DNA from: a bacterium
GTDB lineage: Bacteria > UBP7 > UBA6624 > JBBIMK01
Direction: 5' to 3'
Assembly (NCBI GenBank): GCA_037444445.1
Contig: JBBIMK010000003.1
Coordinates: 1 to 32,000, forward strand
DNA length: 32,000 nucleotides
Position numbers and translations under genes: made by a program. Position 1 is the stretch's first letter. Each line of letters opens with the position of its first letter. The notes under the pieces were generated by a model, which saw only the letters and a list, made by a program, of their open reading frames with translations, did no database searches and had not been told where the DNA came from. Below are positions 2,532 to 23,640 of the stretch, one piece after another.

Positions 2532-2667
2532 TCAGGGTCTTTCCTCCAGAACCCACCCTTCATTGTAACCCTCTTTCTTCTCTTCCGTCAAAAGTTATGG
2601 AAAAAAGGGAACCCAACCGGTGAGAGATTATTTCCTGCTTCGCCCACCGGGCTTTGAATCACGAAGT

Positions 2668-2681
2668 ATGATAAATATCAT
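2668..2681. promoter_or_regulatory. 14-bp palindrome ATGATA-AA-TATCAT with a TGAT-N4-ATCA core (FNR/CRP-family half-site pattern) upstream of the respiratory operon
   Basis: Perfect inverted repeat read directly from the sequence. It lies 75-88 nt upstream of the first ATG of the operon (2756), in the divergent intergenic region. Confidence 0.3.
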
Positions 2682-2689
2682 CAATAAAT

Positions 2690-2736
2690 CTGACACAGGT
2701 CATTTCCATTGATTATGCTTGCGATAAAATTAAAAT
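2690..2736 (+). promoter_or_regulatory. Candidate sigma70-type promoter elements for the respiratory operon
   Basis: Option A is cTGACA (2690-2695), N18, TATGCT (2714-2719). Option B is TTGATT (2709-2714), N16, TAAAAT (2731-2736). Option B would place the transcription start inside the SD (AAGGAGGG, 2741-2748), so A is slightly preferred. Neither is proven. Confidence 0.3.
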
Positions 2737-2755: not shown

Positions 2756-3421
2756 ATGAAAAACTGGATTCGGGTGGGAGTTGTGATAGGGGTGGTAGTG
2801 GTGCCTCTTATCGCCACTGGAACCGGCGGTGAGAAAAAGCCGGAAGAAAAGAAATCCCCCACCGCTTTTGTAGGCTCCAAGAAGTGTATGCCTTGCCATC
2901 TGGCAATCTATAAGTCGTGGGAAGCCACTCCGATGGCAAAAGCGTATGAGTCTTTGAAGCCGGGTGTGAAAGCGGAAGCCAAGCAAAAGGCAGGTCTGGA
3001 CCCTCAGAAGGATTACACAACGGATACGAGTTGTCTGGGCTGCCATACTACAGGAAATGGCAAACCCGGTGGGTTCGTGAGCCTGGAGAAAAGCCCTGCA
3101 CTGGCAGGAGTGGGATGTGAGGCGTGCCACGGAGCAGGCACAGAGTACCTCAAGGAAGGGTTGATGACTATGAAGACCCAGGCCCATTCCCTGGAGTCGG
3201 TTCGTAAGGCAGGGCTCATTTATCCTCCTTCTCTGAAGGACTGTGCCACCTGTCACAATGAAAAAAGCCCGTTTAACGAGAAACTGGATAAGAAATATCA
3301 ACTCAAATTTGACAGGGAGACACTGACGAAATCCACCCACTCCCACTCCAGGTTAAAATATGACCACGGAAAAATAGAGGGTTCTTTCTTCCAGCAGGTT
3401 GAAGAGAAAAAAGCCGGATAA
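2756..3421 (+). CDS. tetraheme c-type cytochrome (cytochrome c554-like family), N-terminal signal/anchor
   Basis: 221 aa with a hydrophobic N-terminus (VGVVIGVVVVPLIATG). Four CXXCH sites: CMPCH, CLGCH, CEACH, CATCH. The first is in the FVGSKKCMPCH...YKSW context typical of c554-like multihemes. AAGGAGGG SD lies 7 nt upstream. Confidence 0.85.
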   Translation: MKNWIRVGVVIGVVVVPLIATGTGGEKKPEEKKSPTAFVGSKKCMPCHLAIYKSWEATPMAKAYESLKPGVKAEAKQKAGLDPQKDYTTDTSCLGCHTTGNGKPGGFVSLEKSPALAGVGCEACHGAGTEYLKEGLMTMKTQAHSLESVRKAGLIYPPSLKDCATCHNEKSPFNEKLDKKYQLKFDRETLTKSTHSHSRLKYDHGKIEGSFFQQVEEKKAG

Positions 3422-3452
3422 CCTTATTGCCATCATTCATTGAGGGGTCAGA

Positions 3453-3962
3453 GTGATTTATAGATTTCTACTCCTGGTGCTGGTGGGAGTTATCGTGGTA
3501 CTAATCTACACGGGGATACGAGGACGCACTCCGCCTATCGTTCAGCCTATTGCCTACAACCACAAACTTCACATAGATAACGGTTTGAATTGCAGTGATT
3601 GCCATCAAGGGATTGGCACTTCATCGCCTTCCGCCGGGCGTCCTTCCATCCGAACCTGCTCCACCTGCCATGACCCCTCTTCTCCTCTGGGAAAAAGTCC
3701 GGAAGAGGCAAAACTACTGGAGTTCATCAGGAATGACCGGGAACCGCCGTGGAAACGGATTTACAGGGTGCCGGATTATGTTTATTTTTCCCACTATCGG
3801 CATGCCACGCTGGGGAAGATAGGGTGTGACACCTGTCACGGGAAAGTGGAAGGTCTGACGGAGCCTCCTCCACGCCCGCTGGTTCGCTTTTCTATGGACT
3901 GGTGCATTGCCTGCCATAAGAAGAATCAGGTGAGTGTGGATTGCAATCGGTGCCATAAATAA
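3453..3962 (+). CDS. membrane-anchored pentaheme c-type cytochrome, ActA-like (cytochrome c3/c7 superfamily)
   Basis: 169 aa with a GTG start preceded by GAGGGG. One N-terminal TM helix (FLLLVLVGVIVVLIYTGI). Five CXXCH sites: CSDCH, CSTCH, CDTCH, CIACH, CNRCH. The C-terminal MDWCIACH...VDCNRCHK arrangement resembles, from memory, ActA of alternative complex III. Confidence 0.75.
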   Translation: MIYRFLLLVLVGVIVVLIYTGIRGRTPPIVQPIAYNHKLHIDNGLNCSDCHQGIGTSSPSAGRPSIRTCSTCHDPSSPLGKSPEEAKLLEFIRNDREPPWKRIYRVPDYVYFSHYRHATLGKIGCDTCHGKVEGLTEPPPRPLVRFSMDWCIACHKKNQVSVDCNRCHK

Positions 3963-3977
3963 ATTGGGGGGAGTGAG

Positions 3978-6326
3978 ATGAAACTGACCCGGCGGGACTT
4001 CCTGAAGTGGAGCGGAGGAACGGCGGTTGCCGCCGGTGTGCTTCACCGCCCCCTCTCTTCCCTTTTGCAGGCGGATGATTTTTCTTCGGAATGGGGTCCA
4101 GGAACTGAAACCTACATACCCTCCACCTGCCTGTTATGCCCCTGTGCCTGTGGAATTCTCATCCGTGTCGTAGATGGAAAAGCGGTGAAAATAGAAGGGA
4201 ACCCCTTAAGCCCTGTCAATCAGGGAAAACTATGTCCGAAAGGGCATAGTGCTGTGCTGGAACTGTATCATCCGGACCGTCTGAAGAAACCCTTGAAACG
4301 GGCAGGGAAAAGAGGGGAAGGAAAGTGGGTATCTATTTCCTGGGAAGAAGCGGTTCAAACTTTTGCTGAGAAACTCAAAGAACTTCACCACCAGAAGAAA
4401 CCTCATACTTTTGTTTTTTTGAAAGGGAACGGGTATGGTCTCACGACCGGGAAAATGATAGAGCGTTTTTTGCAGGCTTTCGGCTCACCCAATCTGGTGA
4501 TTTCTCCATCCAGAAGTGGTATGGATGGCGCCTACTGGGCAACCCAGGGAGTGAGCGGTGTAGATTATGATTTCTCCCACACTCGTTTGATTCTTTCTTT
4601 TGGAGCCTCGCTTTTAGAGGGTCAGAAATCGCTGGTTCATTTTATGAATGTGTTCGGGAATTCCCGGGGGGAGAATCGTGGCAGGATGCGGCTGATTCAA
4701 ATTGAGCCCCGCCTATCCGTAACGGGTGCGAAGGCTGATTTGTGGGTGCCCATTCAGCCGAATACCTATGCCACTTTTGCTCTGGGAATTGCTCACATCC
4801 TGATTCGCGATGGTCTTTATGACAAAGAATTTATAGAAAAATTTACCGCCGGGTTTGAGGACTGGATAGATGAGGAGGGGAAGGTCAGAGAAGGCTTGAA
4901 AACTATAGTCCTCCGAGACTACACGGTAGAACATGTTTCGGAGGTCACGGGTGTGCCTTTAGACACTCTCCTGCAGGTGGCGTATGAATTTGCCCGAACT
5001 CGCCCTGCCATCGCTTTATCAGACTGGAATGCCACATGGGCTCCAGATGGATTTTTTACGGCGATTGTGGTTCATTCCCTCAATGCTCTTGTGGGCTCAA
5101 TGGATGTGCCCGGCGGAGTGCTTTTACCTCCCTCCCTTCCCTCTGGCGAACTGCCCCCCCTTCCCCCTGATACTCCAACACAGGCGCCCATCCTTCCTCC
5201 CGAAAAAGCATTACTCCCCTCGCTACCTGAGTGGCCTTTCTTTCAAAACCTGATGGAAAATCGCCTTCCTTATATGCCGGAAGTGCTTTTTTTGTATCAT
5301 ACCAATCCAGTGTATGAATATGGGAAGGGAGAAAAAATTCGTAAGGCGCTGGACTCTATACCACTCATCGTTGCCTACACTTCTTTGATGAATGAAACTG
5401 CGGAATATGCGGACCTGGTGCTACCGGAGCCATCCGTTCTGGAGCGGTGGGAGGACGTTCCCGGTTTTGCATCCGGAACCACCCTGGTAGGAATCGCTCA
5501 ACCTGTGGTCACTCCACTTTATGATACTTTACCGCTGGGTGATTTTTTAATCCGGGTGGCGAAAGCCGTTGGAGGTTCCTTATCCTCTGCCTTTCCGTTC
5601 GAGAATTTTGAGGAGGCTCTGGAGGCTCAACTGAATGCCCTTTTTTCTGCCCGAAGGGGCACCCCTTTCACGGACCCCCTGGAAGTGGCGAACATCCGCT
5701 CACTGGAGGAAAGAGGCTGGTGGACTCCGGTGGAGTCCTCGCTGGAAGATTTCAAAACTCGCCTCCTGGAAAAGGGAGGATGGGTTGACCCTTATTACCC
5801 TTATGGGGAGCCTTCCAGAATTTACCAGACGCCGACTCGCCAGTTTGAATTTTTTCCTTTGGTCTGGAAAAGATTGGGAATCCCGACTCCCACAGGACCC
5901 ATCCAATCCGCACCGTCTGACCCAGAATATCCTCTGTTTTTACTTCCCTACTTCCCTCTGGTGTTATGGAATGGTGGAGGAGAATTACCCTGGCTACAGG
6001 AAGTTCTTTCTCCCATTCTGCCAGTGAACTGGGATTCCTGGGTGGAGATAAATCCGGAAACAGCAAAGAAACTGGGGGTTGAGGATGGAGAGGTGGTGTG
6101 GGTGGAGACGCCGGCGGGTCGGGTGAAAACACGGGCGAAAGTCTACTCCGGATTACCCCCTGATGGAGTGGCTATTCCTGCCGGCCTTGGCCACACCTCT
6201 TATGGGAGATACGCCCGAGGAAAGGGAATTCCCGTGGCAGAAATTCTGACCCAGGATTCTGTCCCCCACACCTTTTTTCCTTCCTGGTTTTCTACCCCTG
6301 CACGCATTCGGAAAGTGAGGGAGTAA
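3978..6326 (+). CDS. Tat-exported molybdopterin-oxidoreductase-fold subunit (ActB1/QrcB/PsrA-like), paralogue 1
   Basis: 782 aa with twin-arginine leader MKLTRRDFLKW. FS0 cysteine group C51-x2-C54-x-C56-x-C58...C86. Fold motifs KIEGNP, FGSPN, LILSFGASLLEG, IEPRLSVTGAKADLWVPI. C-terminal MGD-barrel-like WVEINPETAKKLGVEDGEVVWVET. There is no further Cys in the protein. Confidence 0.85.
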   Translation: MKLTRRDFLKWSGGTAVAAGVLHRPLSSLLQADDFSSEWGPGTETYIPSTCLLCPCACGILIRVVDGKAVKIEGNPLSPVNQGKLCPKGHSAVLELYHPDRLKKPLKRAGKRGEGKWVSISWEEAVQTFAEKLKELHHQKKPHTFVFLKGNGYGLTTGKMIERFLQAFGSPNLVISPSRSGMDGAYWATQGVSGVDYDFSHTRLILSFGASLLEGQKSLVHFMNVFGNSRGENRGRMRLIQIEPRLSVTGAKADLWVPIQPNTYATFALGIAHILIRDGLYDKEFIEKFTAGFEDWIDEEGKVREGLKTIVLRDYTVEHVSEVTGVPLDTLLQVAYEFARTRPAIALSDWNATWAPDGFFTAIVVHSLNALVGSMDVPGGVLLPPSLPSGELPPLPPDTPTQAPILPPEKALLPSLPEWPFFQNLMENRLPYMPEVLFLYHTNPVYEYGKGEKIRKALDSIPLIVAYTSLMNETAEYADLVLPEPSVLERWEDVPGFASGTTLVGIAQPVVTPLYDTLPLGDFLIRVAKAVGGSLSSAFPFENFEEALEAQLNALFSARRGTPFTDPLEVANIRSLEERGWWTPVESSLEDFKTRLLEKGGWVDPYYPYGEPSRIYQTPTRQFEFFPLVWKRLGIPTPTGPIQSAPSDPEYPLFLLPYFPLVLWNGGGELPWLQEVLSPILPVNWDSWVEINPETAKKLGVEDGEVVWVETPAGRVKTRAKVYSGLPPDGVAIPAGLGHTSYGRYARGKGIPVAEILTQDSVPHTFFPSWFSTPARIRKVRE
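3989..4063 (+). repeat. 75-nt tract 100% identical to 9632-9706 (Tat signal-peptide region of the two MoPt-fold paralogues)
   Basis: Base-by-base comparison: ccggcgggacttcctgaagtggagcggaggaacggcggttgccgccggtgtgcttcaccgccccctctcttccct is present at both sites. Flanking coding sequence has diverged. Confidence 0.95.
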
Positions 6327-6327
6327 A

Positions 6328-7008
6328 ATGGCAAGATATGGTATGGTTATAGATTTGGATAAATGCACGGGCTGTCAGGCGTGCGTGGTGGCATGCAAAT
6401 CGGAGAATAATATCCCCATTTCTACCCCTGAGGAAAGTGAGGAGGGGCGAAAAATTTCCTGGATGGAAGTCATACCCCGGGTGGAAGGAGAATATCCTCA
6501 TGTCACGGTGAAGTTTATTCCCCGCCCCTGCTTCCATTGCGATAAGCCACCCTGCACCCTCGTTTGCCCGGTTTATGCCACCTATAAAAACGATGAAGGT
6601 TTCGTGGCACAAATCTATCCTCGTTGCATCGGGTGTCGCTACTGCACTCAAGCATGCCCCTATACGGTGAAATATTTCAACTGGTATAAGCCCAGATGGG
6701 ACGCTCCTCTCCAGGCTTGCTTCAACCCGGAGGTGTCAGTTCGGCCGGCGGGAGTGGTGGAAAAATGCACCTTCTGTCATCACCGTTTAATGAAAGCGAA
6801 GGAGAAGGCAAGAGGGGAGAATCGGGAGGTCCGGGGAGAAGAGTATCAGCCCGCCTGCGTCCAGTCTTGCCCTACCGGTGCCATCTATTTTGGTGACCTG
6901 GATGACCCGAAAAGCACGGTCCACCTTCTCGCCAGAGACCCCAGAGCCTTCCGAATTATGGAAGACCTGGGAGCGGAACCCAAAGTCTATTATTTATCCG
7001 AGAAATGA
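6328..7008 (+). CDS. four-cluster [4Fe-4S] ferredoxin subunit (PsrB/NrfC/QrcC/ActB2-like), paralogue 1
   Basis: 226 aa with four Cys groups: CTGCQACVVAC, CFHCDKPPCTLVCP, CIGCRYCTQACP, CTFCHH...CVQSCP. The ATG lies 1 nt after the upstream stop. Confidence 0.9.
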   Translation: MARYGMVIDLDKCTGCQACVVACKSENNIPISTPEESEEGRKISWMEVIPRVEGEYPHVTVKFIPRPCFHCDKPPCTLVCPVYATYKNDEGFVAQIYPRCIGCRYCTQACPYTVKYFNWYKPRWDAPLQACFNPEVSVRPAGVVEKCTFCHHRLMKAKEKARGENREVRGEEYQPACVQSCPTGAIYFGDLDDPKSTVHLLARDPRAFRIMEDLGAEPKVYYLSEK

Positions 7009-8384
7009 GAGACTACGCACGAATCCGAGACCTGGAAAAACTCCAGAAGGACATCGGTAAAGACGCTCAGGTCTTTTCTCCGATTCTCCTGAAACCTACA
7101 CCCGCCTACTGGGCAACCGTTCTGGTTTTATCGGCGATTCTGGGGTGGGGAGTTTATGCTTACATTCGGCAAATCCAGTATGGGCTGGGAGTAACAGGGT
7201 TGAATCGCCCGATATACTGGGGATTCTACATTATCAACTTCGTTTTCTGGATTGGGATTGCTCATGCGGGCACTCTGATTTCTTCAGTTCTGCGCGTGAC
7301 CAGCACGGAGTGGCGTCGTCCGTTTACCCGGGCTGCAGAAGCGGTTACCGTCTTCAGCCTCCCTTTCGCCGCCATCAACCCCATTATTGACCTGGGGCGC
7401 CCGGACCGCCTCCTGAATGTCTTCCGCACCCCCCACTTTACTTCCCCTCTTCTCTGGGATGTGGTCTGCATCTCTATTTATCTCATCTTTAGCGTAATCT
7501 ACTTTTATATTGCTCTGCTCCCTGACCTGGCTATGTGCCGGGATTACCTCATCTCTGTCTCTCCCTTCCGCAGGTGGCTTTATAAGACCCTCTCTTTAGG
7601 ATTTCGCTACGATGAGAAGAGATGGAAAAAAATTGAGTGGTGGATGAACGGCCTCGCCATCTTTCTGTTTATGGTCGTGGTGTCCGTTCACACCAATGTT
7701 TCCTTCGTTTTTTTGATGACTCTTCAGCCCGGCTGGCACACCACCATTCTCGCTCCTTATTTCGTTCTCGGAGCCATTTATTCCGGGTGTGCGGCTGTGA
7801 TTATCATTATGGCCCTTCTTCGCTGGGTCTACCGCCTCTACAATTATGTAACCGATGTTCACTTTCAAAAAATGGCGAAATTTATGATTGCTTTAGCCCT
7901 TTTCTGGCTTTACTTCACCGGTATTGAATTTTTAGCCATCTACTATGGGCGAGAGGTCGCTCCGATGACCATCTTCCATGCCAAAGTGTTCGGTGCCTAT
8001 AAAGATGTATTCTGGCTGATGTTCCTTCTGACTTTCCTCATTCCTCTGACACTTTTGGTGATTCCAAAAACCCGGAACATCCCCGGTCTGGTGGTAGCAT
8101 CAATCTCTATCATCATCGGAATGTGGCTGGAACGATATTCAGTGATTGTGCCCAGTGAGGCTTATCCTCGGATGGCGAATTTTGTAGGGCTTTATTTCCC
8201 CACCTGGGTGGAATGGTCTATCACTGCGGCTCTTCTGGCAGGATTTTGCCTTTTTTATGTCTTATTCGCCCGCTTCTTTCCTATTCTCACCGTGTGGGAA
8301 GTTCGTGAAGGGCGGGAGCACGGATTGCAGCATTTCGTTTCGGAAATGAAAGCCTTCTACCCGGGTGAAGAATTTCACGGATGA
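7005..8384 (+). CDS. NrfD-family integral membrane quinone-interacting subunit (ActC/ActF/QrcD-like, ~10 TM), paralogue 1
   Basis: 459 aa with about ten hydrophobic helices by eye. The NrfD-like core is GLNRPIYWGFYIINFVFWIGIAHAGTLIS. ATGA start/stop overlap with the ferredoxin gene at 7005-7008. Confidence 0.85.
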   Translation: MRDYARIRDLEKLQKDIGKDAQVFSPILLKPTPAYWATVLVLSAILGWGVYAYIRQIQYGLGVTGLNRPIYWGFYIINFVFWIGIAHAGTLISSVLRVTSTEWRRPFTRAAEAVTVFSLPFAAINPIIDLGRPDRLLNVFRTPHFTSPLLWDVVCISIYLIFSVIYFYIALLPDLAMCRDYLISVSPFRRWLYKTLSLGFRYDEKRWKKIEWWMNGLAIFLFMVVVSVHTNVSFVFLMTLQPGWHTTILAPYFVLGAIYSGCAAVIIIMALLRWVYRLYNYVTDVHFQKMAKFMIALALFWLYFTGIEFLAIYYGREVAPMTIFHAKVFGAYKDVFWLMFLLTFLIPLTLLVIPKTRNIPGLVVASISIIIGMWLERYSVIVPSEAYPRMANFVGLYFPTWVEWSITAALLAGFCLFYVLFARFFPILTVWEVREGREHGLQHFVSEMKAFYPGEEFHG

Positions 8385-8400
8385 AAGGAGGAATACAAAG

Positions 8401-9624
8401 GTGAAAAAAATGACGCACCTGCCCTGGGTAAAAAAAGGATTCTGGGGAATTTCGGTCGGGATGCTTGTATTTCTGCTGAGGTCGGGATACGCTCAGCCTC
8501 CCACCTTCACCGGAAGCCCTGTGGAAGGCAGAAGAATTTTTGTGTTGAAGGGATGCGTCCGGTGCCATTCGGTGTGGGGGGAGGGAGGAAAAATTGGGCC
8601 TGACCTGGCCCGCACCACCGGGCGAAATTTCTACGAAATGGCTGGGTTGATGTGGAATCATTCTCCCCAGATGCTGACAAAGATGCGGGAGACAGGCACA
8701 CCGGTTCCAACGCTTTCTTCCGATGAAATGGGCCATCTTCTGGCTTATCTTTCCTTTCTCACCTATTTTGATGAGCCTGGCGACTTCGCCCGAGGGGAAG
8801 AGTTGTTTACTCAGAAAGGTTGCATTCTGTGCCACTCAGTGGGGGGCAAAGGAGGTAATGTGGGACCTTCTCTGGATAAATTTGCCGGGAAAATGTCCCC
8901 GGTTTATCTGGCTCAGGCCATCTGGAACCACGGACCCGCAATGACGGAGAAGATGAAAGAGAAGGGGATTTACCGCCCCACCTATGAGAAAGGAGAAATG
9001 GCGGACCTTCTGGCATTTATTCGGGGAAGCGCCCTTTCCGATGTTCGGGAACGGACCTTCGCTCCACCGGGCAATGCGGATTCAGGCAAGGCACTCTTTA
9101 CCTCCAAAGGGTGCATCCGCTGTCATTCCATTTATGGTAGTGGTGGAACAGTAGGACCCGACCTGGGCAAAATCGGTTTGAGCAGAAGTGTCACCGAAGT
9201 AGCAGGGTTAATGTGGAATCATGCCGTAAAGATGTGGGGTAAAATGAAAGAACTGGGCATTCCCATCCCCAGGTTTGAAGAGAACGAAATGGCAGATATT
9301 TTCGCTTATCTTTATCAGGTTGGCTACCTCGGTGAGAGGGGAGATGCCAGCAGGGGAAAGATGGCCTTTAGCCAGAAAAAGTGCAAGGTTTGCCACAGTG
9401 TGAATGGTGTGGGTGGGGATGTAGGACCGGATTTAGCGAAGAGCCCTGTTACGGCATCTCCTGTTTCTCTGGCGTCAGCGATGTGGAACCACGCTGCCAC
9501 TATGTATGAATTGATGCGTTCCAGAGGCATCGCCTGGCCCATCTTCCGGGGCAGTGAAATCTCCGACATCATCGCCTACATCCGCACTGCAAAAAAAACT
9601 TCTCCCCCTCTCCCATCCCGATGA
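8401..9624 (+). CDS. secreted tetra-domain class I c-type cytochrome (4 x monoheme domain), paralogue 1
   Basis: The ORF is open from GTG 8365. I prefer GTG 8401 because GGAGG (8387-8391) lies 9 nt upstream. ATG 8410 is also possible. Signal peptide GISVGMLVFLLRSGYA. Four CXXCH sites (CVRCH, CILCH, CIRCH, CKVCH), each in a ~100-aa repeat G..F..KGC..CHS..G.GG..GP.L...WNH...M. Confidence 0.8.
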   Translation: MKKMTHLPWVKKGFWGISVGMLVFLLRSGYAQPPTFTGSPVEGRRIFVLKGCVRCHSVWGEGGKIGPDLARTTGRNFYEMAGLMWNHSPQMLTKMRETGTPVPTLSSDEMGHLLAYLSFLTYFDEPGDFARGEELFTQKGCILCHSVGGKGGNVGPSLDKFAGKMSPVYLAQAIWNHGPAMTEKMKEKGIYRPTYEKGEMADLLAFIRGSALSDVRERTFAPPGNADSGKALFTSKGCIRCHSIYGSGGTVGPDLGKIGLSRSVTEVAGLMWNHAVKMWGKMKELGIPIPRFEENEMADIFAYLYQVGYLGERGDASRGKMAFSQKKCKVCHSVNGVGGDVGPDLAKSPVTASPVSLASAMWNHAATMYELMRSRGIAWPIFRGSEISDIIAYIRTAKKTSPPLPSR

Positions 9625-12047
9625 AAATCAGCCGGCGGGACTTCCTGAAGTGGAGCGGAGGAACGGCGGTTGCCGCCGGTGTGCTTCACCGCCCCCTCTC
9701 TTCCCTGCTTCAGGAGGATGCGACCCTTCCTGACTGGTCTACGGGCGTTGAATCCACCTTTTCTACTGCTTGCACTCTGTGCCCTGCTGGGTGCGGTATC
9801 CGAGTTCGGATTGTGGACGGAAAAGCGGTCTCTCTGGAGGGCAATACTCTTCATCCTATCACCCGGGGAGGCATTTGTGCGAAAGGGCTTTCCGGACTTC
9901 ATATCCTGTATAGTCCTGAACGAATTCAAACTCCTCTAAAAAAGGTGGGCGACCGGGAAACCGGGCGATGGCAACCTGTCTCCTGGGAGGAAGCCATTCA
10001 GGCCGTGGCGAAACGGCTACAGGAATTCCGCGAACAGGTATCCCCTCAGAGTATGGTCTTCCTGGATGGTCGCCCTTTCGGGCTGATGCATCAACTCATC
10101 CATCGCTTCACACAAGCCTACGGAACGCCGAATCACATTGCCGATTTCTATGGAGATGGGATGTCTTCCGTCGTGTATGCAATGCAGGGAATTCGCTCTC
10201 TGCCGGCTTACGATTTTGCCCGCTCCAACTACATTCTTTCCTTCGGTGCTTCTTTAATGGAAGCAGGCTGGTCGCCCGTGGGTTTTGCCCGTGCCTACGG
10301 TGAGTTTCGCCAGGGTAGTGGGCGAAAACGAGGAAAATTGGTTCAGGTGGATACTCGCTTCTCCGCCACCGCGGCGAAAGCGGATGAATGGCTTCCCATC
10401 CGCCCGAATGCCTATTCCGCTCTTGCACTCGGAATCGCTTATGTCATTGTGAAAGAAGGCCTGATTCACCAAAACTTCATCAATACTTTTACCGAGGGGT
10501 TTGAGCAGTGGAAGGCGGTCGTGCTGGAGGAGGGGCGCCCGGAACGCGTTTCCTCTGTCACCGGAATACCCGTAGATAGGATATTCCGTGTGGCGCGGGA
10601 ATTTGCTACCCATTCTCCAGCAGTAGCTGTGGCTGGATATGAAGCCTCTTCCGGTACATCCGGTTTTTATGCCGGGATGTGTATCCACAGCCTGAATGCC
10701 CTCGTGGGCTCCATTGATGTACCGGGGGGCGTTCGCTTTGAACCTCCTGCCCCTTTCCCAGAATTGGAAATCCCTCTGGATGAAATTGCCAAACGCTCTC
10801 TGTCTCATCCAAGGATAGACTCTGTAAATCGCATGGAATCTATTTCTGAAAGCCACCCATTTGCCCTCTCTCAAGCAATTCTTTCATCCACTCCCTATCC
10901 GGTTAGCGCCCTTTTCCTGTATTATTCCAACCCTCTTTATTCTCACCCCAATCCCAATTTGTTTCGGGAAGCAATCCAGAAGGTTCCCCTCCTCGTGAGT
11001 TTTTCTCCTTTTATGGATGAAACGACAGCGCTTTCAGATTTTGTGCTTCCCGACCACACCTATTTAGAGCGATGGCAGGATGTTCCGTATATACCCAATA
11101 CGGGAACCCCCGTGGTGAGCCTTGCACAGCCGGTGGTGAAACCTCTTTACGATACCCGGCATACGGGGGATGTTCTGCTATCTTTAGCCAGGGCGATTGG
11201 GGGCGTGATGGCGAATGCGTTTCCCTGGGAAACCTATGAAGATTACTTGAAATGGAACTTTCACGGACTTTATGAAAGCCATTCCGGAACTCCTTTCCTT
11301 CCCCCTCTGGAGTTAGAGGAAATCCGTCGTCTGGAGGAAGCCGGGTTCTCAAAACCCGCTTTTACCTCTTTTGACGACTTCTGGGATGCCCTGGTGAAAT
11401 CCGGGGGCTGGGTGGACCCGGTTTACTTCTATAACGAGTGGAATCGGATTTTTCAGACCCCATCACGGAAATTTGAGTTTGTCTCCAGCCTCTTACGCTC
11501 TGCTTTTGAATCGGCTTTTCAAACAGGAAGTAAAAAGGGTCAAACGGTTGGAGAAGTGCGTGAAAGGCTCCTGACGGACTGGAAGATTACCGCTCGTGAT
11601 GAGCGATTATTTATGCCTCACGATGAATTTCCTCCCCTGGCAGGAGAGGGGGAATTTCTGTTGAATCCTTTTAAGCCTTATACGCTATCCACCGGTAGCC
11701 TTTGCAATCTTCCGTTTTTATATGAAATTTTAGGTTTTTTGGTGAATTCCCAGTGGGAGTGCTGGCTGGAGTTGCACCCGATAGATGCGGAAAAACTGGG
11801 TCTTCAGAATGAAGAAAAAACCTGGCTCAGGCTGGGAGAAAAGCGATGGTCGTGCAGGGTAAGAGTTACGCCGGGTGCTCAACCCGGTGTCGTGAACCTG
11901 CCTTTTGGATTTGGCCACAGGGCTTACTCCGCTTTTTCCACTGGAATGGGTGCAAACGCATTTGACCTGCTGGAAGGCAGGCTCAGCCCCCTTACTGGTC
12001 TTCCGGAACTTTATACCCGGAAGGTTCGCATAGAAAAAGCCGAGTGA
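9621..12047 (+). CDS. Tat-exported molybdopterin-oxidoreductase-fold subunit, paralogue 2
   Basis: 808 aa with leader MKISRRDFLKW. FS0 group CTLCPAGC...CAKG. Motifs LEGNT, YGTPN, ILSFGASLMEAG, VDTRFSATAAKADEWLPI. C-terminal barrel WLELHPIDAEKLGLQNEEKTWLRL. ATGA overlap with the upstream cytochrome gene at 9621-9624. Confidence 0.85.
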   Translation: MKISRRDFLKWSGGTAVAAGVLHRPLSSLLQEDATLPDWSTGVESTFSTACTLCPAGCGIRVRIVDGKAVSLEGNTLHPITRGGICAKGLSGLHILYSPERIQTPLKKVGDRETGRWQPVSWEEAIQAVAKRLQEFREQVSPQSMVFLDGRPFGLMHQLIHRFTQAYGTPNHIADFYGDGMSSVVYAMQGIRSLPAYDFARSNYILSFGASLMEAGWSPVGFARAYGEFRQGSGRKRGKLVQVDTRFSATAAKADEWLPIRPNAYSALALGIAYVIVKEGLIHQNFINTFTEGFEQWKAVVLEEGRPERVSSVTGIPVDRIFRVAREFATHSPAVAVAGYEASSGTSGFYAGMCIHSLNALVGSIDVPGGVRFEPPAPFPELEIPLDEIAKRSLSHPRIDSVNRMESISESHPFALSQAILSSTPYPVSALFLYYSNPLYSHPNPNLFREAIQKVPLLVSFSPFMDETTALSDFVLPDHTYLERWQDVPYIPNTGTPVVSLAQPVVKPLYDTRHTGDVLLSLARAIGGVMANAFPWETYEDYLKWNFHGLYESHSGTPFLPPLELEEIRRLEEAGFSKPAFTSFDDFWDALVKSGGWVDPVYFYNEWNRIFQTPSRKFEFVSSLLRSAFESAFQTGSKKGQTVGEVRERLLTDWKITARDERLFMPHDEFPPLAGEGEFLLNPFKPYTLSTGSLCNLPFLYEILGFLVNSQWECWLELHPIDAEKLGLQNEEKTWLRLGEKRWSCRVRVTPGAQPGVVNLPFGFGHRAYSAFSTGMGANAFDLLEGRLSPLTGLPELYTRKVRIEKAE
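9632..9706 (+). repeat. Second copy of the 75-nt identical tract (partner of 3989-4063)
   Basis: Identical at all 75 positions to 3989-4063. Encodes RRDFLKWSGGTAVAAGVLHRPLSSL in both genes. Confidence 0.95.
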
Positions 12048-12054
12048 TGAGAAG

Positions 12055-12750
12055 ATGCCGCTCTGGGGAATGATAATTGATTTAGACAAATGCACCGCCT
12101 GCCGGGCTTGCATTATTGCCTGCAAAGTGGAGAACAACATTCCCATTTCTTCCCCACAAACGGTGAGGGAACATCGGGTGATAAACTGGCTGGAAATGGT
12201 TTTATTTCCCGAAGAAGGCCGGGAGGAACACCCGTGGAAGGTGCGCATCCTTCCCCGCCCCTGCTTCCATTGCGATAAGCCACCCTGCATCAAAGTATGC
12301 CCGGTATTTGCCACCTATAAAAATGAGGAAGGAATCGTAGCGCAGATTTACCCCCGCTGTATCGGGTGCCGATATTGTATGAACAACTGCCCGTATAATG
12401 TGAAGAAATTCAACTGGTTTGAGCCACACTGGCCAGAAACGATGAAGCAGTGTTTCAACCCGGATGTATCCGTGCGACCCAGGGGGGTTGTGGAGAAATG
12501 CACTTTCTGCCATCATCGGCTTATCAAAGCGGAAGAGATGGCAAAAGCAGAGGGGCGTGAACTCCAGGATGGCGACTATCTCCCCGCTTGCGTTCAAGCC
12601 TGCCCAGCAGGTGCCATGTATTTCGGCGACCTCAACGACCCCAACAGCCAGGTGTACCACTTATCCAGAAGTCCTCGTGTTTTCCGGCTCCTGGAAGATA
12701 TGGGAACAGAGCCCAAAGTCCTTTATCTCACGGAGGAGAAATCGGAATGA
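12055..12750 (+). CDS. four-cluster [4Fe-4S] ferredoxin subunit, paralogue 2
   Basis: 231 aa with Cys groups CTACRACIIAC, CFHCDKPPCIKVCP, CIGCRYCMNNCP, CTFCHH...CVQACP. Collinear with 6328-7008 and clearly the most similar of the four paralogue pairs by eye. Confidence 0.9.
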   Translation: MPLWGMIIDLDKCTACRACIIACKVENNIPISSPQTVREHRVINWLEMVLFPEEGREEHPWKVRILPRPCFHCDKPPCIKVCPVFATYKNEEGIVAQIYPRCIGCRYCMNNCPYNVKKFNWFEPHWPETMKQCFNPDVSVRPRGVVEKCTFCHHRLIKAEEMAKAEGRELQDGDYLPACVQACPAGAMYFGDLNDPNSQVYHLSRSPRVFRLLEDMGTEPKVLYLTEEKSE

Positions 12751-14129
12751 AATATGTTCAGATTGACCCGAAGAATCTGGGGCATGAGGAAAAACTTCTT
12801 CAGCCGCTTTTAAGAACTACACCTGCTTTTTACTGGACCATTCTGATACTTTTCATTCTCGTCGGATGGGGGTTCTATGCCTATTCGGTCCAGGTTCGGC
12901 GCGGTCTGGGGGTTACTGGCTTGAACCAGCCGGTCTACTGGGGATTTTATATTGTGGATTTTGTTTTCTTTATCGGGATCAGCCATGCGGGAACCTTGAT
13001 TTCTGCGATTTTGCGTGCCACGCAGGCAGAGTGGCGTCGGCCCATCACCCGCTCCGCTGAAGCCATCACCGTTCTCGTTCTCCTCATCGGCGGCATTCAA
13101 CCCATCATTGATTTGGGTCGCCCCGACCGAGTTCTCAACGTCCTCCGAACGCCCAATCTCCGTAGCCCCCTCCTCTGGGATGTGATTTCTATCTCCGCTT
13201 ACCTGACCTGCTCCAGTATCTATCTATGGATTCCTCTCATCCCGGATATTGCCATCTTGAAACAGCGAGTTCCTCGTTTCCGATGGCTTTATTCTCTCCT
13301 TTCTGCCGGGTGGAAAGGCACGGAAGAACAGTGGCGAAAATTGGGCAAAGCCATCTCCATTATGATGGTGATTATCATCCCCATCGCTGTGTCCGTTCAT
13401 ACCGTCGTTTCCTGGGTGTTTGCGATGACCGTTCAACCCTTCTGGCACAGTACCATCTTCGGACCCTTTTTTGTCGCGGGAGCTATCTTCTCCGGTATTG
13501 CCGCTATCATCGTGGCGATGGCAATCATCCGAAAGGTCTATCACCTGGAAGATTACCTGAAGCCAGTGCACTTCAGTAATCTCGGCATTCTTCTTCTGGT
13601 AATGTCTGCCATCTGGTTGTATTTCGTCATTGCCGAACATCTCACCTCTTATTACGGAGCAGAACCCGCTGAAATGACCATTCTGTGGGATAAACTCTTC
13701 GGCCGATATGCTCCCGTATTCTGGACGATGGTGATAGCCAATTTCATCATTCCCGTGGCCCTCCTTTCTTTCCGAAAAACAAGGACAGTGCCGGGCACGG
13801 TGATTGCTTCCATTTCTGTTATCATCGGTATGTGGCTGGAGCGCTATCAGATTGTGGTTCCCACGCTGGTGAATCCACGCCTCCCTTACCCCCGTGGTTT
13901 GTATTTTCCCTCCTGGGTAGAGTGGTCCATTCTCGTAGGCTCTTTCTCCATTTTCATCCTCTTTTATGTTCTCTTCACCAAGTTTTTTCCCATCATTTCC
14001 ATCTGGGAAGTGAGAGAAGGGAAAGAACTGGGTATAGAAGAGACGCTGGAGCGATTAAAACTGTATCAACCGGAGGAGGGGGAACTGACCAGACCCGGGT
14101 TGCCCGGGCTTCACCTTAAGAAGGAATGA
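12747..14129 (+). CDS. NrfD-family integral membrane subunit (~10 TM), paralogue 2
   Basis: The track ORF starts at 12588, but that extension overlaps the ferredoxin gene out of frame. I set the start at ATG 12747 (MKYVQIDPKNL), which forms an ATGA overlap with the ferredoxin stop as in paralogue 1. The core GLNQPVYWGFYIVDFVFFIGISHAGTLIS is conserved. Confidence 0.85.
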   Translation: MKYVQIDPKNLGHEEKLLQPLLRTTPAFYWTILILFILVGWGFYAYSVQVRRGLGVTGLNQPVYWGFYIVDFVFFIGISHAGTLISAILRATQAEWRRPITRSAEAITVLVLLIGGIQPIIDLGRPDRVLNVLRTPNLRSPLLWDVISISAYLTCSSIYLWIPLIPDIAILKQRVPRFRWLYSLLSAGWKGTEEQWRKLGKAISIMMVIIIPIAVSVHTVVSWVFAMTVQPFWHSTIFGPFFVAGAIFSGIAAIIVAMAIIRKVYHLEDYLKPVHFSNLGILLLVMSAIWLYFVIAEHLTSYYGAEPAEMTILWDKLFGRYAPVFWTMVIANFIIPVALLSFRKTRTVPGTVIASISVIIGMWLERYQIVVPTLVNPRLPYPRGLYFPSWVEWSILVGSFSIFILFYVLFTKFFPIISIWEVREGKELGIEETLERLKLYQPEEGELTRPGLPGLHLKKE

Positions 14130-15355
14130 TGAATCACTTGAAAAATTGTGCACCTCTGCTGGCTGTATCTCTCGTTGCAGGAATTTTACAACTGCTGTGG
14201 GCTTCACATCTATACGGTCAAAAAGGGGAAGCGAATTTTCTACCGGATAACCCCCTCAAGGGGCGAGAAACATTCGTTCAAAAAGGCTGTGTGGTCTGTC
14301 ATTCCATCTTCGGCGCTGGTGGCACTCTCGGGCCTGACCTCGCCCTCGCCTCACAAGGGAAAGGTTTTCTTGAACTTGCCGGCCTCCTCTGGAATCACAC
14401 CCCCAAAATGATGGAGGTCTTTCAGAAAAAAGGCAAGAAATGGCCCCAACTCTCCCCTGAAGAGATGACGGATATCTTCGCTTATCTCTACTCCCTGAAC
14501 TATTTTGAGCCCGCTGGTAACTTCGTAGAGGGCGAAAAACTCTTTTCAGAAAAACGCTGTGCTCACTGCCATTCGGTGGGCGGCAAAGGAGGAAAGGTGG
14601 GACCCTCTCTGGATAAATACGCCAGAGATGCTTCCGCGATTGCCCTCGGCTCCGCTCTCTGGAATCACTCCCCTGCCATCCTCCAAAAACTCAAGGAAAC
14701 GGGAACTGACATCCCTGTTTTTGAAGGTTCTGAACTGGCGGATATCTTAGCCTATATTCGGGGCGCCTCTCTGGAATTTCACGGACCCCGCCACTATCTG
14801 CCCATTGGCAGCCCCTTGCGCGGAAGCGCCCTCTTCTCCACCAAAGGATGCATTCAATGCCACTCTATCCGGGAGAAGGGTGGAAAGGTGGGACCCGACC
14901 TATCCGAGGTTTCCTTTACTGTGAATGCCGCCTCCATAGCAGGGATATTGTGGAATCACTCCGCCGCTATGCAGGAAAAAATGAAAAACCTTCAGATCCC
15001 CTGGATTCCTTTGTCTCCAGAAGAAATGGCAGACATCATTGCCTATCTCTATTTTCTTGAATACACAGACACTCGTGGCGACCCCGTGAAGGGGAAAAGG
15101 TTATTTGAGAAAGAGCGCGGATGCGGATTCTGCCATAATGGTGGTAAGGAAAGCGAAAAAACTGCACCGGATTTAAGGCAGTCAGAGGCTATGAATTCTC
15201 CGGGTGCTTTCGCTGCCGCAATGTGGAACCACTCTGCTACAATGAACGAATTGATGCGCTCCCGGGGGATTGCCTGGCCTACCTTTCAAGGCAGTGAAAT
15301 ATCCGACATCATCGCCTACATCCGTTCCACGAAAAAACCATTCCCACCCCGCTGA
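14126..15355 (+). CDS. secreted tetra-domain class I c-type cytochrome, paralogue 2
   Basis: 409 aa with a signal-like N-terminus (APLLAVSLVAGILQLLWA). Four CXXCH sites: CVVCH, CAHCH, CIQCH, CGFCH. Same four-repeat organisation and WNH motif as 8401-9624. ATGA overlap with the NrfD-like stop at 14126-14129. Confidence 0.85.
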   Translation: MMNHLKNCAPLLAVSLVAGILQLLWASHLYGQKGEANFLPDNPLKGRETFVQKGCVVCHSIFGAGGTLGPDLALASQGKGFLELAGLLWNHTPKMMEVFQKKGKKWPQLSPEEMTDIFAYLYSLNYFEPAGNFVEGEKLFSEKRCAHCHSVGGKGGKVGPSLDKYARDASAIALGSALWNHSPAILQKLKETGTDIPVFEGSELADILAYIRGASLEFHGPRHYLPIGSPLRGSALFSTKGCIQCHSIREKGGKVGPDLSEVSFTVNAASIAGILWNHSAAMQEKMKNLQIPWIPLSPEEMADIIAYLYFLEYTDTRGDPVKGKRLFEKERGCGFCHNGGKESEKTAPDLRQSEAMNSPGAFAAAMWNHSATMNELMRSRGIAWPTFQGSEISDIIAYIRSTKKPFPPR

Positions 15356-15614
15356 AAGAGAATCCGAAGTTTTCGCAAAAGCATAAAAAATTCCCCCCCA
15401 TTTTTACATTTCTCTGTGGGGTTTACATAATTACTGATTTTTTCACCGCTTCGTCAGAAACTAAAATATGAAAAACTGAGTAAACCGATGCCACCGTCGC
15501 CGGAATCCCTCTCTCGGGTTCAAGTGTCTCTGTTACAAAGTAGAGAGGGACATGGCTCGCATCCGCTTTCTCATCAGGAATTCGGGGATTTGGGATTTTG
15601 AGACTTAGAAGAGT

Positions 15615-17855: not shown

Positions 17856-17982
17856 AATACTTATAGATTACCACAAAAGGAAAGTTCATATCCCTGCAGG
17901 CCAAGAAGTGTGGTCAGGACCCCCATAGTTATTCCTGTTTTTGTCCACTTTTCAGGTTCCATGAGCGGTAGCAACGCCTGCT

Positions 17983-19572: not shown

Positions 19573-19604
19573 TTTGCCATTTACAATGTAAAGGCAGTCA
19601 GGAA

Positions 19605-19634
19605 TTGTCTTCCTCTGTCAGTTTTTGATATAAT
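19605..19634 (+). promoter_or_regulatory. Candidate promoter for the small zinc-ribbon gene
   Basis: TTGTCT (19605-19610), N18, perfect TATAAT (19629-19634). The ATG at 19646 lies only 11 nt after the -10 box and has no SD, implying a leaderless or very short-leader mRNA. Confidence 0.35.
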
Positions 19635-19645
19635 TCCTTCTGACT

Positions 19646-19897
19646 ATGAAATGCAGGGCGTGCGGAGCGGAATTCACCCCCCTTCGGAAAGACACAAGAT
19701 TCTGCAAACAAAAGACCTGCCTCCGCCTCCGGCGCCGGGCGTATATGCAGAAGTATTACCCTCGCTGGAAGAAAGCCCACCCTACCTATATGAAAAACTA
19801 TTTGAAAAAGTGGAAATTAAATCATCCTGGCTACCACGCAAGGTGGCATAGAATGCGAGCCTTGCAAAGAAATCGGGGAAATTTCCCCACCGAATAA
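19646..19897 (+). CDS. small, highly basic zinc-ribbon protein (hypothetical)
   Basis: 83 aa. CRAC...FCKQKTC gives a CxxC-x14-C-x4-C arrangement. Rich in K/R/H/Y/W. Internal repeat YYPRWKKAHPTY / YLKKWKLNHPGY. Confidence 0.5.
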   Translation: MKCRACGAEFTPLRKDTRFCKQKTCLRLRRRAYMQKYYPRWKKAHPTYMKNYLKKWKLNHPGYHARWHRMRALQRNRGNFPTE

Positions 19898-19931
19898 CGC
19901 TGTCCTTTCTGCTTTCGGTTTACTGCTTCTT

Positions 19932-22562: not shown

Positions 22563-22639
22563 CGGTCTTCCCCCCCTTGAATTTTGATATGGAATACGGG
22601 TCCATTCAAATCCATATTATTTTACACCTTTTCCCTGGC

Positions 22640-23635: not shown

Positions 23636-23640
23636 GCAGT

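Follow-up and report, generated by a model that had tools for sequence, protein, structure and literature searches.

A ten-gene operon of a UBP7 bacterium and the common, uncharacterized module, related to alternative complex III and Qrc, of which it appears to combine two old subtypes

A main route linking the quinone pool to periplasmic redox chemistry is provided by modules with an NrfD-type membrane subunit, of which only a few (Psr, Nrf, alternative complex III (ACIII), Qrc and Dsr) have been studied. Here, we analyze a DNA stretch of 32,000 nucleotides from a bacterium of the GTDB lineage UBP7 (assembly GCA_037444445.1, contig JBBIMK010000003.1, positions 1–32,000 of the forward strand), referred to as the window in the following, which carries an operon of ten genes at 2756–15355. 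In this operon, two multiheme cytochromes are followed by a block of four genes that occurs twice in the same order and encodes a protein with a molybdopterin fold (Mo-fold), a ferredoxin with four iron–sulfur (FeS) clusters, an NrfD-like membrane protein and a four-domain cytochrome c. A first-pass annotation, made from the sequence alone, had considered this an ACIII/Qrc-like system that fits no canonical layout, which raises the question of whether the operon represents a new kind of machine. It does not: that description was accurate and the general placement right, but the operon is a rare arrangement of a common, unstudied module. Judged by its sequence relationships, it is a rare juxtaposition of two old subtypes of this uncharacterized module and not a unique duplication. 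As to its products, we lean slightly towards a pair of paralogous quinone:cytochrome c complexes from an ACIII/Qrc-related family, termed type 1 and type 2, which would share one heme wire.

The ten genes are the following, with twin-arginine translocation abbreviated as Tat, the molybdenum-bis(pyranopterin guanine dinucleotide) cofactor as Mo-bisPGD, and the FeS cluster of the Mo-fold subunit as FS0:

2756..3421, + strand: cytochrome c554-like tetraheme protein with an N-terminal signal or anchor helix; four CXXCH motifs; Pfam Cytochrome_C554 (2.5e-26)
3453..3962, + strand: ActA/QrcA-like pentaheme cytochrome c with an N-terminal transmembrane anchor; five CXXCH motifs; Pfam c7/c3 families
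3978..6326, + strand: type-1 Tat-exported Mo-bisPGD-fold subunit (ActB1/QrcB equivalent); FS0 kept, Mo-ligand Cys absent
6328..7008, + strand: type-1 four-cluster ferredoxin (ActB2/QrcC equivalent) without signal peptide; 16 cluster cysteines; Pfam Fer4_11
7005..8384, + strand: type-1 ActC-like 10-helix NrfD membrane subunit; Pfam NrfD; ActC 6f0k_C (3.4e-64)
8410..9624, + strand: secreted cytochrome of four class-I monoheme c domains, copy 1; four CXXCH motifs; four Cytochrom_C stretches
9621..12047, + strand: type-2 Tat-exported Mo-bisPGD-fold subunit; FS0 kept, Mo-ligand Cys absent
12055..12750, + strand: type-2 four-cluster ferredoxin; 16 cluster cysteines; Pfam Fer4_11
12747..14129, + strand: type-2 ActC-like NrfD membrane subunit; Pfam NrfD; start ATG at 12747
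14126..15355, + strand: secreted four-domain monoheme cytochrome c, copy 2; four CXXCH motifs; four Cytochrom_C stretches

All ten open reading frames (ORFs) are present on the same strand at the coordinates given by the first-pass annotation, and a profile search against Pfam, which it had recommended, matched every protein to the expected families. The computed spacings of 31, 15, 1, −4, 25, −4, 7, −4 and −4 nt, which assume ATG 8410 as the start of cytochrome copy 1, agree with its range of −4 to +31 nt, and the ATGA overlaps at 7005, 9621, 12747 and 14126 are exact. ATG 8410 is preceded by an AAGGTG ribosome-binding site, and with the alternative GTG at 8365, the first 20 nt would lie within the NrfD gene; likewise, a longer ORF of the second NrfD gene, starting with TTG at 12588, was rejected as it overlaps the ferredoxin gene. 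The count of 17 CXXCH motifs was reproduced (4 + 5 + 4 + 4 over the four cytochromes), with an additional CTFCH in each ferredoxin being part of an FeS motif and not a heme site. Equally reproduced were the ten predicted FeS clusters, given the FS0 cysteines in both Mo-fold proteins and the 16 cysteines in both ferredoxins, and the two NrfD-type subunits with about 10 helices each by hydropathy scan. The pentaheme cytochrome is correctly described as the product of the second gene, but the idea of a pentaheme first gene as the ActA signature does not apply, since the c554-like gene comes first.

How unusual is this architecture? We scanned one genome per GTDB species with an NrfD profile, which yielded 80 loci, obtained 80 more from a metagenome scan, and annotated all of them through phmmer searches with the ten operon proteins, complemented by heme counts (individual loci are denoted by L and a number below). 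A five-gene module of ActA-like, Mo-fold, FeS, NrfD and tetraheme c proteins turned out to be the norm in these ~160 loci from many phyla, so that the architecture is not unique. We therefore define the family as ActA/Mo-fold/FeS/ActC-like/tetraheme c. Most loci have one ActA-like/Mo-fold/FeS/NrfD set, with one or two four-domain cytochromes behind it or, in some cases, ahead of it, and both window modules show all family features: the gene order, FS0, the 16-Cys ferredoxin, Asp129 and Val or Ile235 in the membrane subunit, and four domains with the CxxCH...WNHxxxM motif. In the genome scan, the closest NrfD relative has 58% identity. The hosts belong to Gemmatimonadota, Acidobacteriota, Ignavibacteria, Bacteroidota, Planctomycetota, Calditrichia, Zixibacteria, Fidelibacterota, Rokuibacteriota, Anaeromyxobacter and Thermodesulfobacteriota, and thus include environmentally abundant phyla (Acidobacteriota, Gemmatimonadota, Ignavibacteria, Bacteroidota, Planctomycetota and Thermodesulfobacteriota). 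In public databases, the proteins carry generic names such as ‘molybdopterin-dependent oxidoreductase’ or ‘NrfD/PsrC family’, and given these labels, metabolic reconstructions probably misread the family as polysulfide, thiosulfate or arsenate reductase or as ACIII. In the literature searched, we found no biochemical study of any member.

The relationship between the two modules of the window can be addressed against this background. Their Mo-fold proteins share 41%, their FeS proteins 62%, their NrfDs 50% and their cytochromes 47% identity. In a neighbor-joining tree rooted on canonical ActC, the NrfDs of the family form a clade of their own, in which the first window NrfD (NrfD1) falls into a small type-1 clade with L001/L083, L003–L006 and the first copies of L013 and L050, and the second (NrfD2) into a large type-2 clade with the second copies of L013 and L050. 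Each subclade has single-module members in other phyla; type 1, for example, stands alone with its own ActA-like gene and a tetraheme cytochrome in L001 and L165–L167. The notion of a tandemly duplicated module thus holds in so far as the same gene order occurs twice, but not in the sense of a tandem duplication, as we are dealing with two old subclades that each also occur alone.

The gene-order search in genomes and metagenome-assembled genomes (MAGs) that had been proposed retrieved the order of type 1 followed by type 2 again, in a Planctomycetota MAG (L013), a Desulfobacterales MAG (L050) and a relative at ~85% nucleotide identity. L013 has a c554-like gene, one ActA-like gene and type-1 then type-2 Mo-fold/FeS/NrfD sets, but no four-domain cytochromes; L050 has a type-1 NrfD, then a complete type-2 module with its own ActA-like gene. 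Further double arrangements are found in Chloroflexota (L016, L057, L076 and L021), and two modules are present in about six of the 160 loci. Both the window and L013 have a single ActA-like gene for two translationally coupled modules; in all single-module loci examined, the module comes with its own. With the tandem operon, the two subtypes are available side by side in a single organism, together with a heme partner that they would share.

The ~85%-identical relative, from JGI metagenome 3300010938, is represented by two contigs that match the window at 4077–9545 and 9645–24351 and carry the same downstream genes. These contigs break exactly at two internal repeats, the Tat leader and the cytochrome 3′ end, which correspond to two segments of the window:

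3977..4077, + strand: Tat-leader segment, 93% nucleotide-identical to 9620–9720
9457..9720, + strand: junction segment, comprising the 3′ end of cytochrome copy 1 (9457–9608) and then the second Tat-leader repeat (9620–9720)

The cytochrome 3′ ends, 9457–9608 and 15197–15348, are 77% identical at the nucleotide level, and the two Tat signal peptides are nearly identical (29 of 31 residues). Such short patches of high identity are best explained by local gene conversion between diverged paralogs and are likely to fragment assemblies of this operon. Because the contigs of the relative break at the same repeats, both the tandem and the patches are conserved in that lineage; in L013, the two Tat leaders are not homogenized. 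The patches, together with the repeated gene order, could also be taken to mean that module 2 is a young tandem copy without a separate role, heading to loss or subfunctionalization. We consider this very improbable, given that the paralogs are only 41–62% identical, that the NrfDs belong to different subclades with single-module members in other phyla, that the same order recurs in Planctomycetota and Desulfobacterales, and that neither copy has lost any of the cofactor motifs or channel residues.

To which of the known systems is the module related? Here, the earlier placement as ACIII/Qrc-related without a characterized layout stands: the best-matching solved structures are ActA, ActC and the C-terminal domain of ActB, and the Qrc models stay below their cut-offs. 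With ACIII (ActABCDEF; structures from R. marinus, 6F0K, F. johnsoniae, 6BTM, and R. castenholzii, 6LOD), the module shares a pentaheme ActA, a periplasm-facing Mo-fold and four-cluster FeS pair with a Tat leader, a 10-helix ActC homolog with a complete half-channel from the N-side (cytoplasmic side), and a c-type cytochrome as terminal heme carrier. The product of gene 2 is a membrane-anchored pentaheme cytochrome c as ActA is, with a transmembrane helix at residues 1–19 in the hydropathy scan, and its best solved structures are ActA chains throughout (6btm_A, 5.9e-25, 8k9e_A, 6f0k_A and 6lod_A; range 5.9e-25 to 6.6e-19). By contrast, the ActB equivalent is split, as had been stated, with a B1 part that keeps FS0 and clusters predicted to be all [4Fe-4S], whereas ActB of ACIII is fused and lacks FS0. 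Also as stated, ActD and a monoheme ActE are absent, and so is the quinone-site-less ActF; the four-domain cytochrome stands in. None of the ten window proteins matches PF11821 (ActD), and the operon has no spare ORF space. Lastly, the second NrfD had been assigned to the ActF position, which does not hold, as each of the two is a complete ActC-type protein and their quinone-site signature is the same. NrfD1, for instance, matches ActF at only 6.7e-9, and a search of solved structures gave no PsrC match for it.

For a closer view of this subunit, we mapped NrfD1 onto R. marinus ActC using published residue lists (PMC5928083). It keeps all 14 residues of the N-side and four of the six of the P-side (periplasmic) half-channel, and also Trp82, Ile86, Phe89, Pro136, Leu166, Asp169, Val250 and Ser245, so that the proton half-channels of ActC are present and most of the hydrophobic quinone pocket is retained. 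The mapped positions vary little or not at all among 29 family members, one of which is NrfD2. The quinone site itself is different. In ActC, His139, Ser164, Asp169 and Asp253 are >95% conserved in 521 sequences (PMC8076601); in NrfD1, Ser164 and Asp169 are kept, but His139 is replaced by Asp129 and Asp253 by Val235, and the same two of the four are replaced in the other paralog. This signature, His139 to Asp and Asp253 to Val or Ile, is found in 80 of 81 type-1 and type-2 members, whereas the canonical ActCs of the fetched loci keep His and Asp. Overall, the NrfDs are 38–39% identical to a canonical ActC of a Gemmatimonadota locus and 44–60% to the module NrfD encoded next to it.

The second system to be compared is QrcABCD. 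Here too, each of four subunits has its own gene, arranged as multiheme c, Mo-fold, FeS and NrfD; the system also has a Tat-exported Mo-fold subunit and an acidic quinone-site residue where ActC has His, and its models are the best or co-best of NCBIfam for three of the subunits. Nonetheless, all scores stay below the cut-offs, with 84 of 180 bits for QrcA (83.7 for the pentaheme protein), 306–326 of 440 for QrcB, 304–312 of 400 for QrcC (312 and 304 for the two ferredoxins) and 37–52 of 570 for QrcD (52 and 37 for the two NrfDs). Furthermore, the Qrc cytochrome is a hexaheme and that of the window a pentaheme, and the window adds the four-domain class-I cytochrome. QrcB is cofactor-less and QrcC has a [3Fe-4S] cluster (PMC8076601), whereas the window proteins are predicted to have FS0 and all-[4Fe-4S] wires; QrcD is restricted to Deltaproteobacteria (PMC8076601), and the family considered here is far wider. 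We equate the ‘MFIc’, a shortened deltaproteobacterial form, with Qrc. ‘MFIcc’ (Yanyushin 2005) was rejected as a name for the family, being the old name of ACIII itself.

Two more relatives share some traits. The best named NCBIfam model for the NrfDs is DsrP (112–130 bits, cut-off 350), and the Asp-Ser-Asp spacing of their quinone site equals that of DsrP1; DsrO gives 175–178 bits for the ferredoxins (cut-off 200). Both Dsr models thus stay below cut-off, and in contrast to DsrOP of DsrMKJOP, the window lacks DsrMKJ and has a Mo-fold and an ActA-like cytochrome. Psr/Phs/Arr (PsrABC of T. thermophilus, 2VPZ, and ArrAB of Shewanella, 6CZ7) provide the best Mo-fold matches and share FS0, an all-[4Fe-4S] partner and the Tat leader. 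The window differs from them in lacking the Mo-ligand Cys and the substrate residues, and in having an ActC-type 10-helix membrane subunit and operon-encoded c-type cytochromes; neither PhsA (313 and 322 bits, cut-off 694) nor ArrA (237 and 269 bits, cut-off 1600) is reached in NCBIfam. On sequence grounds, then, the family lies between the true Psr/Arr molybdoenzymes and ACIII/Qrc. Its mixture of a retained FS0, an all-[4Fe-4S] wire, an ActC-type proton channel and a DsrP/QrcD-type triad makes it a test case both for the origin of the cofactor-less ACIII/Qrc from true molybdoenzymes and for the residues that set direction and energy coupling at NrfD-type quinone sites.

The prediction for the FeS wire comes from the ferredoxins, the first of which has the C-terminal domain of ActB as best structure (6f0k_B, 7.1e-57). 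Their 16 cluster cysteines are kept in 64 of 64 family members. Canonical ActB has a Thr at the position of the second Cys of group III, which is Cys in the window ferredoxins and in all 64 members; by what is known from DmsB and NarH, we take this position to decide between a [4Fe-4S] and a [3Fe-4S] cluster next to the quinone. Because the cysteine is kept where ActB has Thr, the family is predicted to lack the [3Fe-4S] cluster typical of ACIII/Qrc and to have [4Fe-4S] clusters only, in place of the one [3Fe-4S] and three [4Fe-4S] clusters of ActB2. By its sequence motifs, it thus combines FS0 with a four-[4Fe-4S] electron-transfer subunit in the manner of Psr/Phs/Arr.

With respect to the Mo-fold subunits, the view that they are ACIII-like needs to be divided: they are the ActB equivalents, but ActB is not their closest sequence, as they are more similar to ArrA and PsrA, yet without the Mo-ligand Cys. 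Both match Pfam TAT_signal, Molybdop_Fe4S4, Molybdopterin and Molydop_binding. Among solved structures, the first (Mo1) matches ArrA at 3.9e-65, PsrA at 5e-56 and ActB at only ~1e-18 to 1e-20; for both subunits together, the ranges are ~1e-56 to 1e-75 for ArrA/PsrA and ~1e-16 to 1e-20 for ActB. An AlphaFold2 model of Mo1 (pLDDT 85.8) has ArrA (TM 0.77) and PsrA as top fold matches, with no ActB chain among the top 50. Both window proteins have the four FS0 cysteines, as do 64 of 65 family members, whereas the B1 domain of ACIII, which lacks any cofactor, is without them, as are the canonical ActBs of L035 and L080; accordingly, Pfam Molybdop_Fe4S4 matches the window proteins and not ActB.

Do these proteins carry a molybdenum cofactor? 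The cysteine that ligates Mo-bisPGD in Psr/Phs/Arr, Cys173 of PsrA and the Cys of ‘SSVCAEAH’ in ArrA, aligns to a gap, Met or Gly in Mo1 and to Tyr or Gly in the second subunit (Mo2), and the column reads G/N/D/A/S across the family. For the surrounding loop, no consensus emerges across 13 alignment columns, and its length differs among orthologs; neither Arg332 nor His145 of PsrA is conserved either. The Mo-fold subunit is also the fastest-evolving one, with a median of 0.65 bits/aa compared to 1.26 for NrfD and 1.46 for FeS (71 loci). Consequently, we think it probable that the Mo-fold subunits are non-catalytic scaffolds like ActB1/QrcB with a retained FS0, for which cluster N7 of NuoG is a precedent, an FS0-type cluster kept without molybdenum.

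The alternative is a genuine molybdenum or tungsten enzyme, which would bind bisPGD without a Cys, Sec, Ser or Asp ligand and act on a periplasmic substrate, wired to the quinone pool through FS0–FS4 and to the cytochromes. The nearly universal FS0, with a Lys or Arg after its fourth Cys in both window proteins, speaks for it, as do a ferredoxin with [4Fe-4S] clusters only, as in PsrB, DmsB and ArrB, the better sequence and fold matches to ArrA/PsrA than to ActB, and the retention, in the Mo-fold subunits, of ~50% of the residues on which PsrA and ArrA agree, as opposed to ~25% in ActB. Moreover, some Chloroflexota relatives in the wider family, and only these, keep the Cys in an ArrA-like ‘SICAAATE’ loop. 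On the other hand, the active-site loop is hypervariable and the Psr substrate residues are lost, the Lys/Arg is found in just 36 of 65 members of this fast-evolving subunit, and chaperones of the TorD type are not among the top 25 flanking families. Furthermore, most of the family-conserved Mo-fold residues shared with PsrA are also kept in the fused ActB, presumed to be cofactor-less, of the canonical ACIII clusters of L035 and L080, which is why they are no proof of a cofactor. Matches to Pfam Molybdopterin and Molydop_binding were rejected as cofactor evidence for the same kind of reason, as the fused ActB of a canonical ACIII cluster has them too; the fused ActB of the R. marinus ACIII type has been shown to be cofactor-less (PMC5928083). 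On balance, we regard a molybdenum or tungsten enzyme as unlikely.

As a side observation, the Mo-fold genes of three Chloroflexota loci (L076, 1409–3811; L016, 6968–9352; L057, 4645–7050) encode ArrA-like loops, with the Cys present in L076 (‘HNSICAAATE’), and adjoin 8- to 10-heme cytochromes in place of the ActA-like and four-domain cytochromes. These subunits may be still-catalytic relatives of the family.

What remains are the cytochromes. Gene 1, which matches the structure of Nitrosomonas cytochrome c554 (1bvb_A) at 6.6e-32 and has a hydrophobic helix at residues 5–23, evidently encodes a true homolog of that protein. The four-domain cytochromes keep a CxxCH...GPDL...WNHxxxM motif in every domain, match only generic class-I cytochromes among solved structures, and belong to a family of 398 clusters at 50% identity (exhaustive search, E<=1e-30), mostly of ~400 residues. 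Their motif suggests His/Met-ligated class-I hemes, which usually have a high potential. An identification as SoxX was rejected: the scores of 84.8 and 89.7 bits for TIGR04485 exceed the cut-off of 61 only by summing three repeated domains, and automatic annotation could misname these proteins in this way.

Taken together, each of the two complexes that we favor would contain a periplasm-facing trimer of a Tat-exported Mo-fold subunit with FS0, a four-[4Fe-4S] ferredoxin, probably co-exported with it, and a 10-helix ActC-type subunit. The Tat leaders of the Mo-fold proteins and the signal peptides of the cytochromes argue for this periplasmic orientation. The quinone site would lie in the membrane subunit, as would a conserved path for protons from the cytoplasm, and electrons would be exchanged between the quinone pool and a heme network in the periplasm, made up of one membrane-anchored ActA-like pentaheme, two four-domain class-I cytochromes and one c554-like tetraheme cytochrome, in a reaction presumably coupled to the uptake, release or translocation of protons. 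We give a slight preference to net flow from quinol to the cytochromes, as in ACIII; quinol oxidation is favored by the WNHxxxM motif and by the enrichment of multiheme cytochromes around the module in other loci, the latter being what a quinol-oxidizing feeder would lead one to expect. Clusters of this kind have been read in the same direction (PMC9386147).

A number of points weigh against this proposal or parts of it. Qrc is a quinone reductase, and the classical role of cytochrome c554 is to deliver electrons towards the quinone pool. A complete five-cluster wire into an ArrA/PsrA-like fold is what a real catalytic subunit would have, and arsenite oxidase shows that a protein ligand to molybdenum is dispensable, which bears on the scaffold function. 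That a single ActA-like protein serves both modules is purely what we infer. The module adjoins a canonical ACIII in L035 and L080 and a Rieske/cytochrome b complex in L017 and its relatives, which argues against a redundant quinol:cytochrome c oxidoreductase. Finally, the NrfD triad Asp129-Ser147-Asp152, with its spacing of 18 + 5, follows the pattern of DsrP1 (Asp106-Ser124-Asp129) and QrcD (Asp120-Ser138-Glu142) and not that of ActC (His139-Ser164-Asp169) (PMC8076601).

Several of these points would be accounted for if the complexes ran in the direction of Qrc, as cytochrome c:quinone oxidoreductases in which electrons from periplasmic donors pass through the cytochromes and the FeS wire to the quinone, with protons taken from the N-side. 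Quinone reduction would then be electrogenic, or an uphill transfer driven by the proton-motive force if the donors have a high potential. Such a direction would fit the triad, the c554-type cytochrome at the start of the operon, and a complementary role, given that in several lineages the module neighbors a genuine quinol oxidase, either ACIII or Rieske/cytochrome b. It is also in line with the QrcA, QrcB and QrcC models as best or co-best matches, with DsrP outscoring QrcD for NrfD, and with the complete set of N-side residues, which Qrc uses for proton uptake (PMC6303296). We nevertheless hold it to be possible but doubtful, as all Qrc models stay below their cut-offs, QrcD by far, as His/Met class-I hemes would make the reduction of menaquinone uphill, as the ferredoxin lacks the [3Fe-4S] signature of QrcC/ActB, and as hydrogenase or formate dehydrogenase genes are not enriched in the flanks.

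Whereas the proposal of two complexes treats type 1 and type 2 as separate entities, they might also form one heteromeric supercomplex, in which the two trimers pair like ActC and ActF or the PsrC dimer and share the ActA wire and the two tetraheme cytochromes. The hint comes from stoichiometry, with just one ActA-like gene per two coupled modules in both the window and L013, but we consider this reading quite improbable. If true, the complex would have survived as an intermediate form linking dimeric Psr-type molybdoenzymes to ACIII, with two quinone sites, two proton paths and possibly an active or re-purposed site at the end of the FS0–FS4 wire.

The gene neighborhoods of other family members provide further context. 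In two Gemmatimonadota MAGs (L035, 33–12579; L080, 2–12633), a canonical ACIII is encoded directly upstream of the module on the same strand. That of L035, confirmed by Pfam, comprises a fused ActB, ActC, ActD (PF11821, 118.7 bits), a monoheme ActE and ActF; L080 has the same pattern by phmmer only. Because this canonical ACIII lies beside the module, the module is not simply the ACIII of the organism. In L017, the region 3′ of the module (7860–12818) encodes a cyclic nucleotide-binding protein, a 605-aa GltD-like NAD(P)H flavin/FeS protein, a split cytochrome b6/subunit IV, a Rieske protein and a multiheme cytochrome, with similar ORF sizes in L011 and L070, and the four-domain cytochrome of this locus is doubled to one 770-aa, 8-heme protein. 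This unusual Rieske/cytochrome b complex, which includes an NAD(P)H-type subunit, is reminiscent of those described in anammox bacteria. A Pfam scan of 266 flanking ORFs of the genome loci found multiheme cytochromes (c7, c3, MtrC-like and c554), two-component systems with sigma-54 activators and, in some lineages, cytochrome b as recurrent neighbors; cytochrome oxidase families are not among the top 25.

Two variants were noticed in passing. Ten loci (L089, L092, L095, L096, L098, L099, L101, L104, L112 and L114) have a type-2-like NrfD (540–575 bits) preceded by a divergent 257-aa ferredoxin (~130–160 bits). Neither a Mo-fold nor an ActA-like gene was detected in these loci, pointing to a Mo-less family derivative. 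In L093, L094, L097, L107 and L109, a type-2 module has its ActA-like gene immediately preceded by a separate, distant pair of ferredoxin and NrfD (~140 and 80 bits), which adds a second NrfCD-like dimer to the locus.

Related clusters have been described in the literature. The nearest published account concerns the MBNT15 bacterium SHF-111, for which two ‘ACIII-like’ clusters, 3 and 4, were reported with a four-heme ActE-like protein and duplicated act genes, and such clusters were proposed to be quinol:periplasmic-acceptor oxidoreductases unrelated to oxygen respiration (PMC9386147). Compared by their annotation-based description, they reportedly have ActD, and one of them also ActE/ActF, unlike the window. 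Similarly, genomes of iron oxidizers encode a split ActB1 with the FS0 motif, but ActD, ActE and ActF are present (PMC4643136), and the genome papers of Caldithrix and Limisphaera describe canonical ACIII variants only. The arsenate-induced ‘Psr/Phs’ of Melioribacter roseus (Mros1774-1776) was dropped as a candidate member, being a plain three-gene Psr with a MerR regulator.

Returning to the window, the operon is flanked by minus-strand genes at distances of 224 nt and 259 nt, with products such as 3-hydroxyacyl-CoA dehydrogenase, phosphoglucomutase and glycoside hydrolases. As these are housekeeping genes on the opposite strand, the operon is self-contained. We infer that its ten genes form one unit from the gaps of −4 to 31 nt and the layout kept in the 85%-identical relative. 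One further feature is suggestive at best:

2654..2736, + strand: four clustered sigma-70-like promoter matches in the 224-nt divergent intergenic region 5′ of gene 1

The total of promoter matches over the scanned region is at background level, as is the terminator scan, so that a single transcript is not provable by these means. Because sigma-54 activators flank the module in other loci, we also looked for a sigma-54 promoter 5′ of the operon, where matches did not exceed chance level and no site was found. The window contains no tRNA and no Rfam family.

Elsewhere in the window, a minus-strand gene at 26480–29878 encodes a 1132-aa protein with an AAA_16/AAA_22 ATPase and MalT-like tetratricopeptide repeat regions that resembles a STAND-type regulator and has no evident connection to the operon. 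Closer to the operon, the minus strand at 15615–22562 encodes a GH63/MGH1-like glycoside hydrolase, a melibiase-family protein and an M1 peptidase fused to HEAT repeats, a block that is syntenic in the relative L163.

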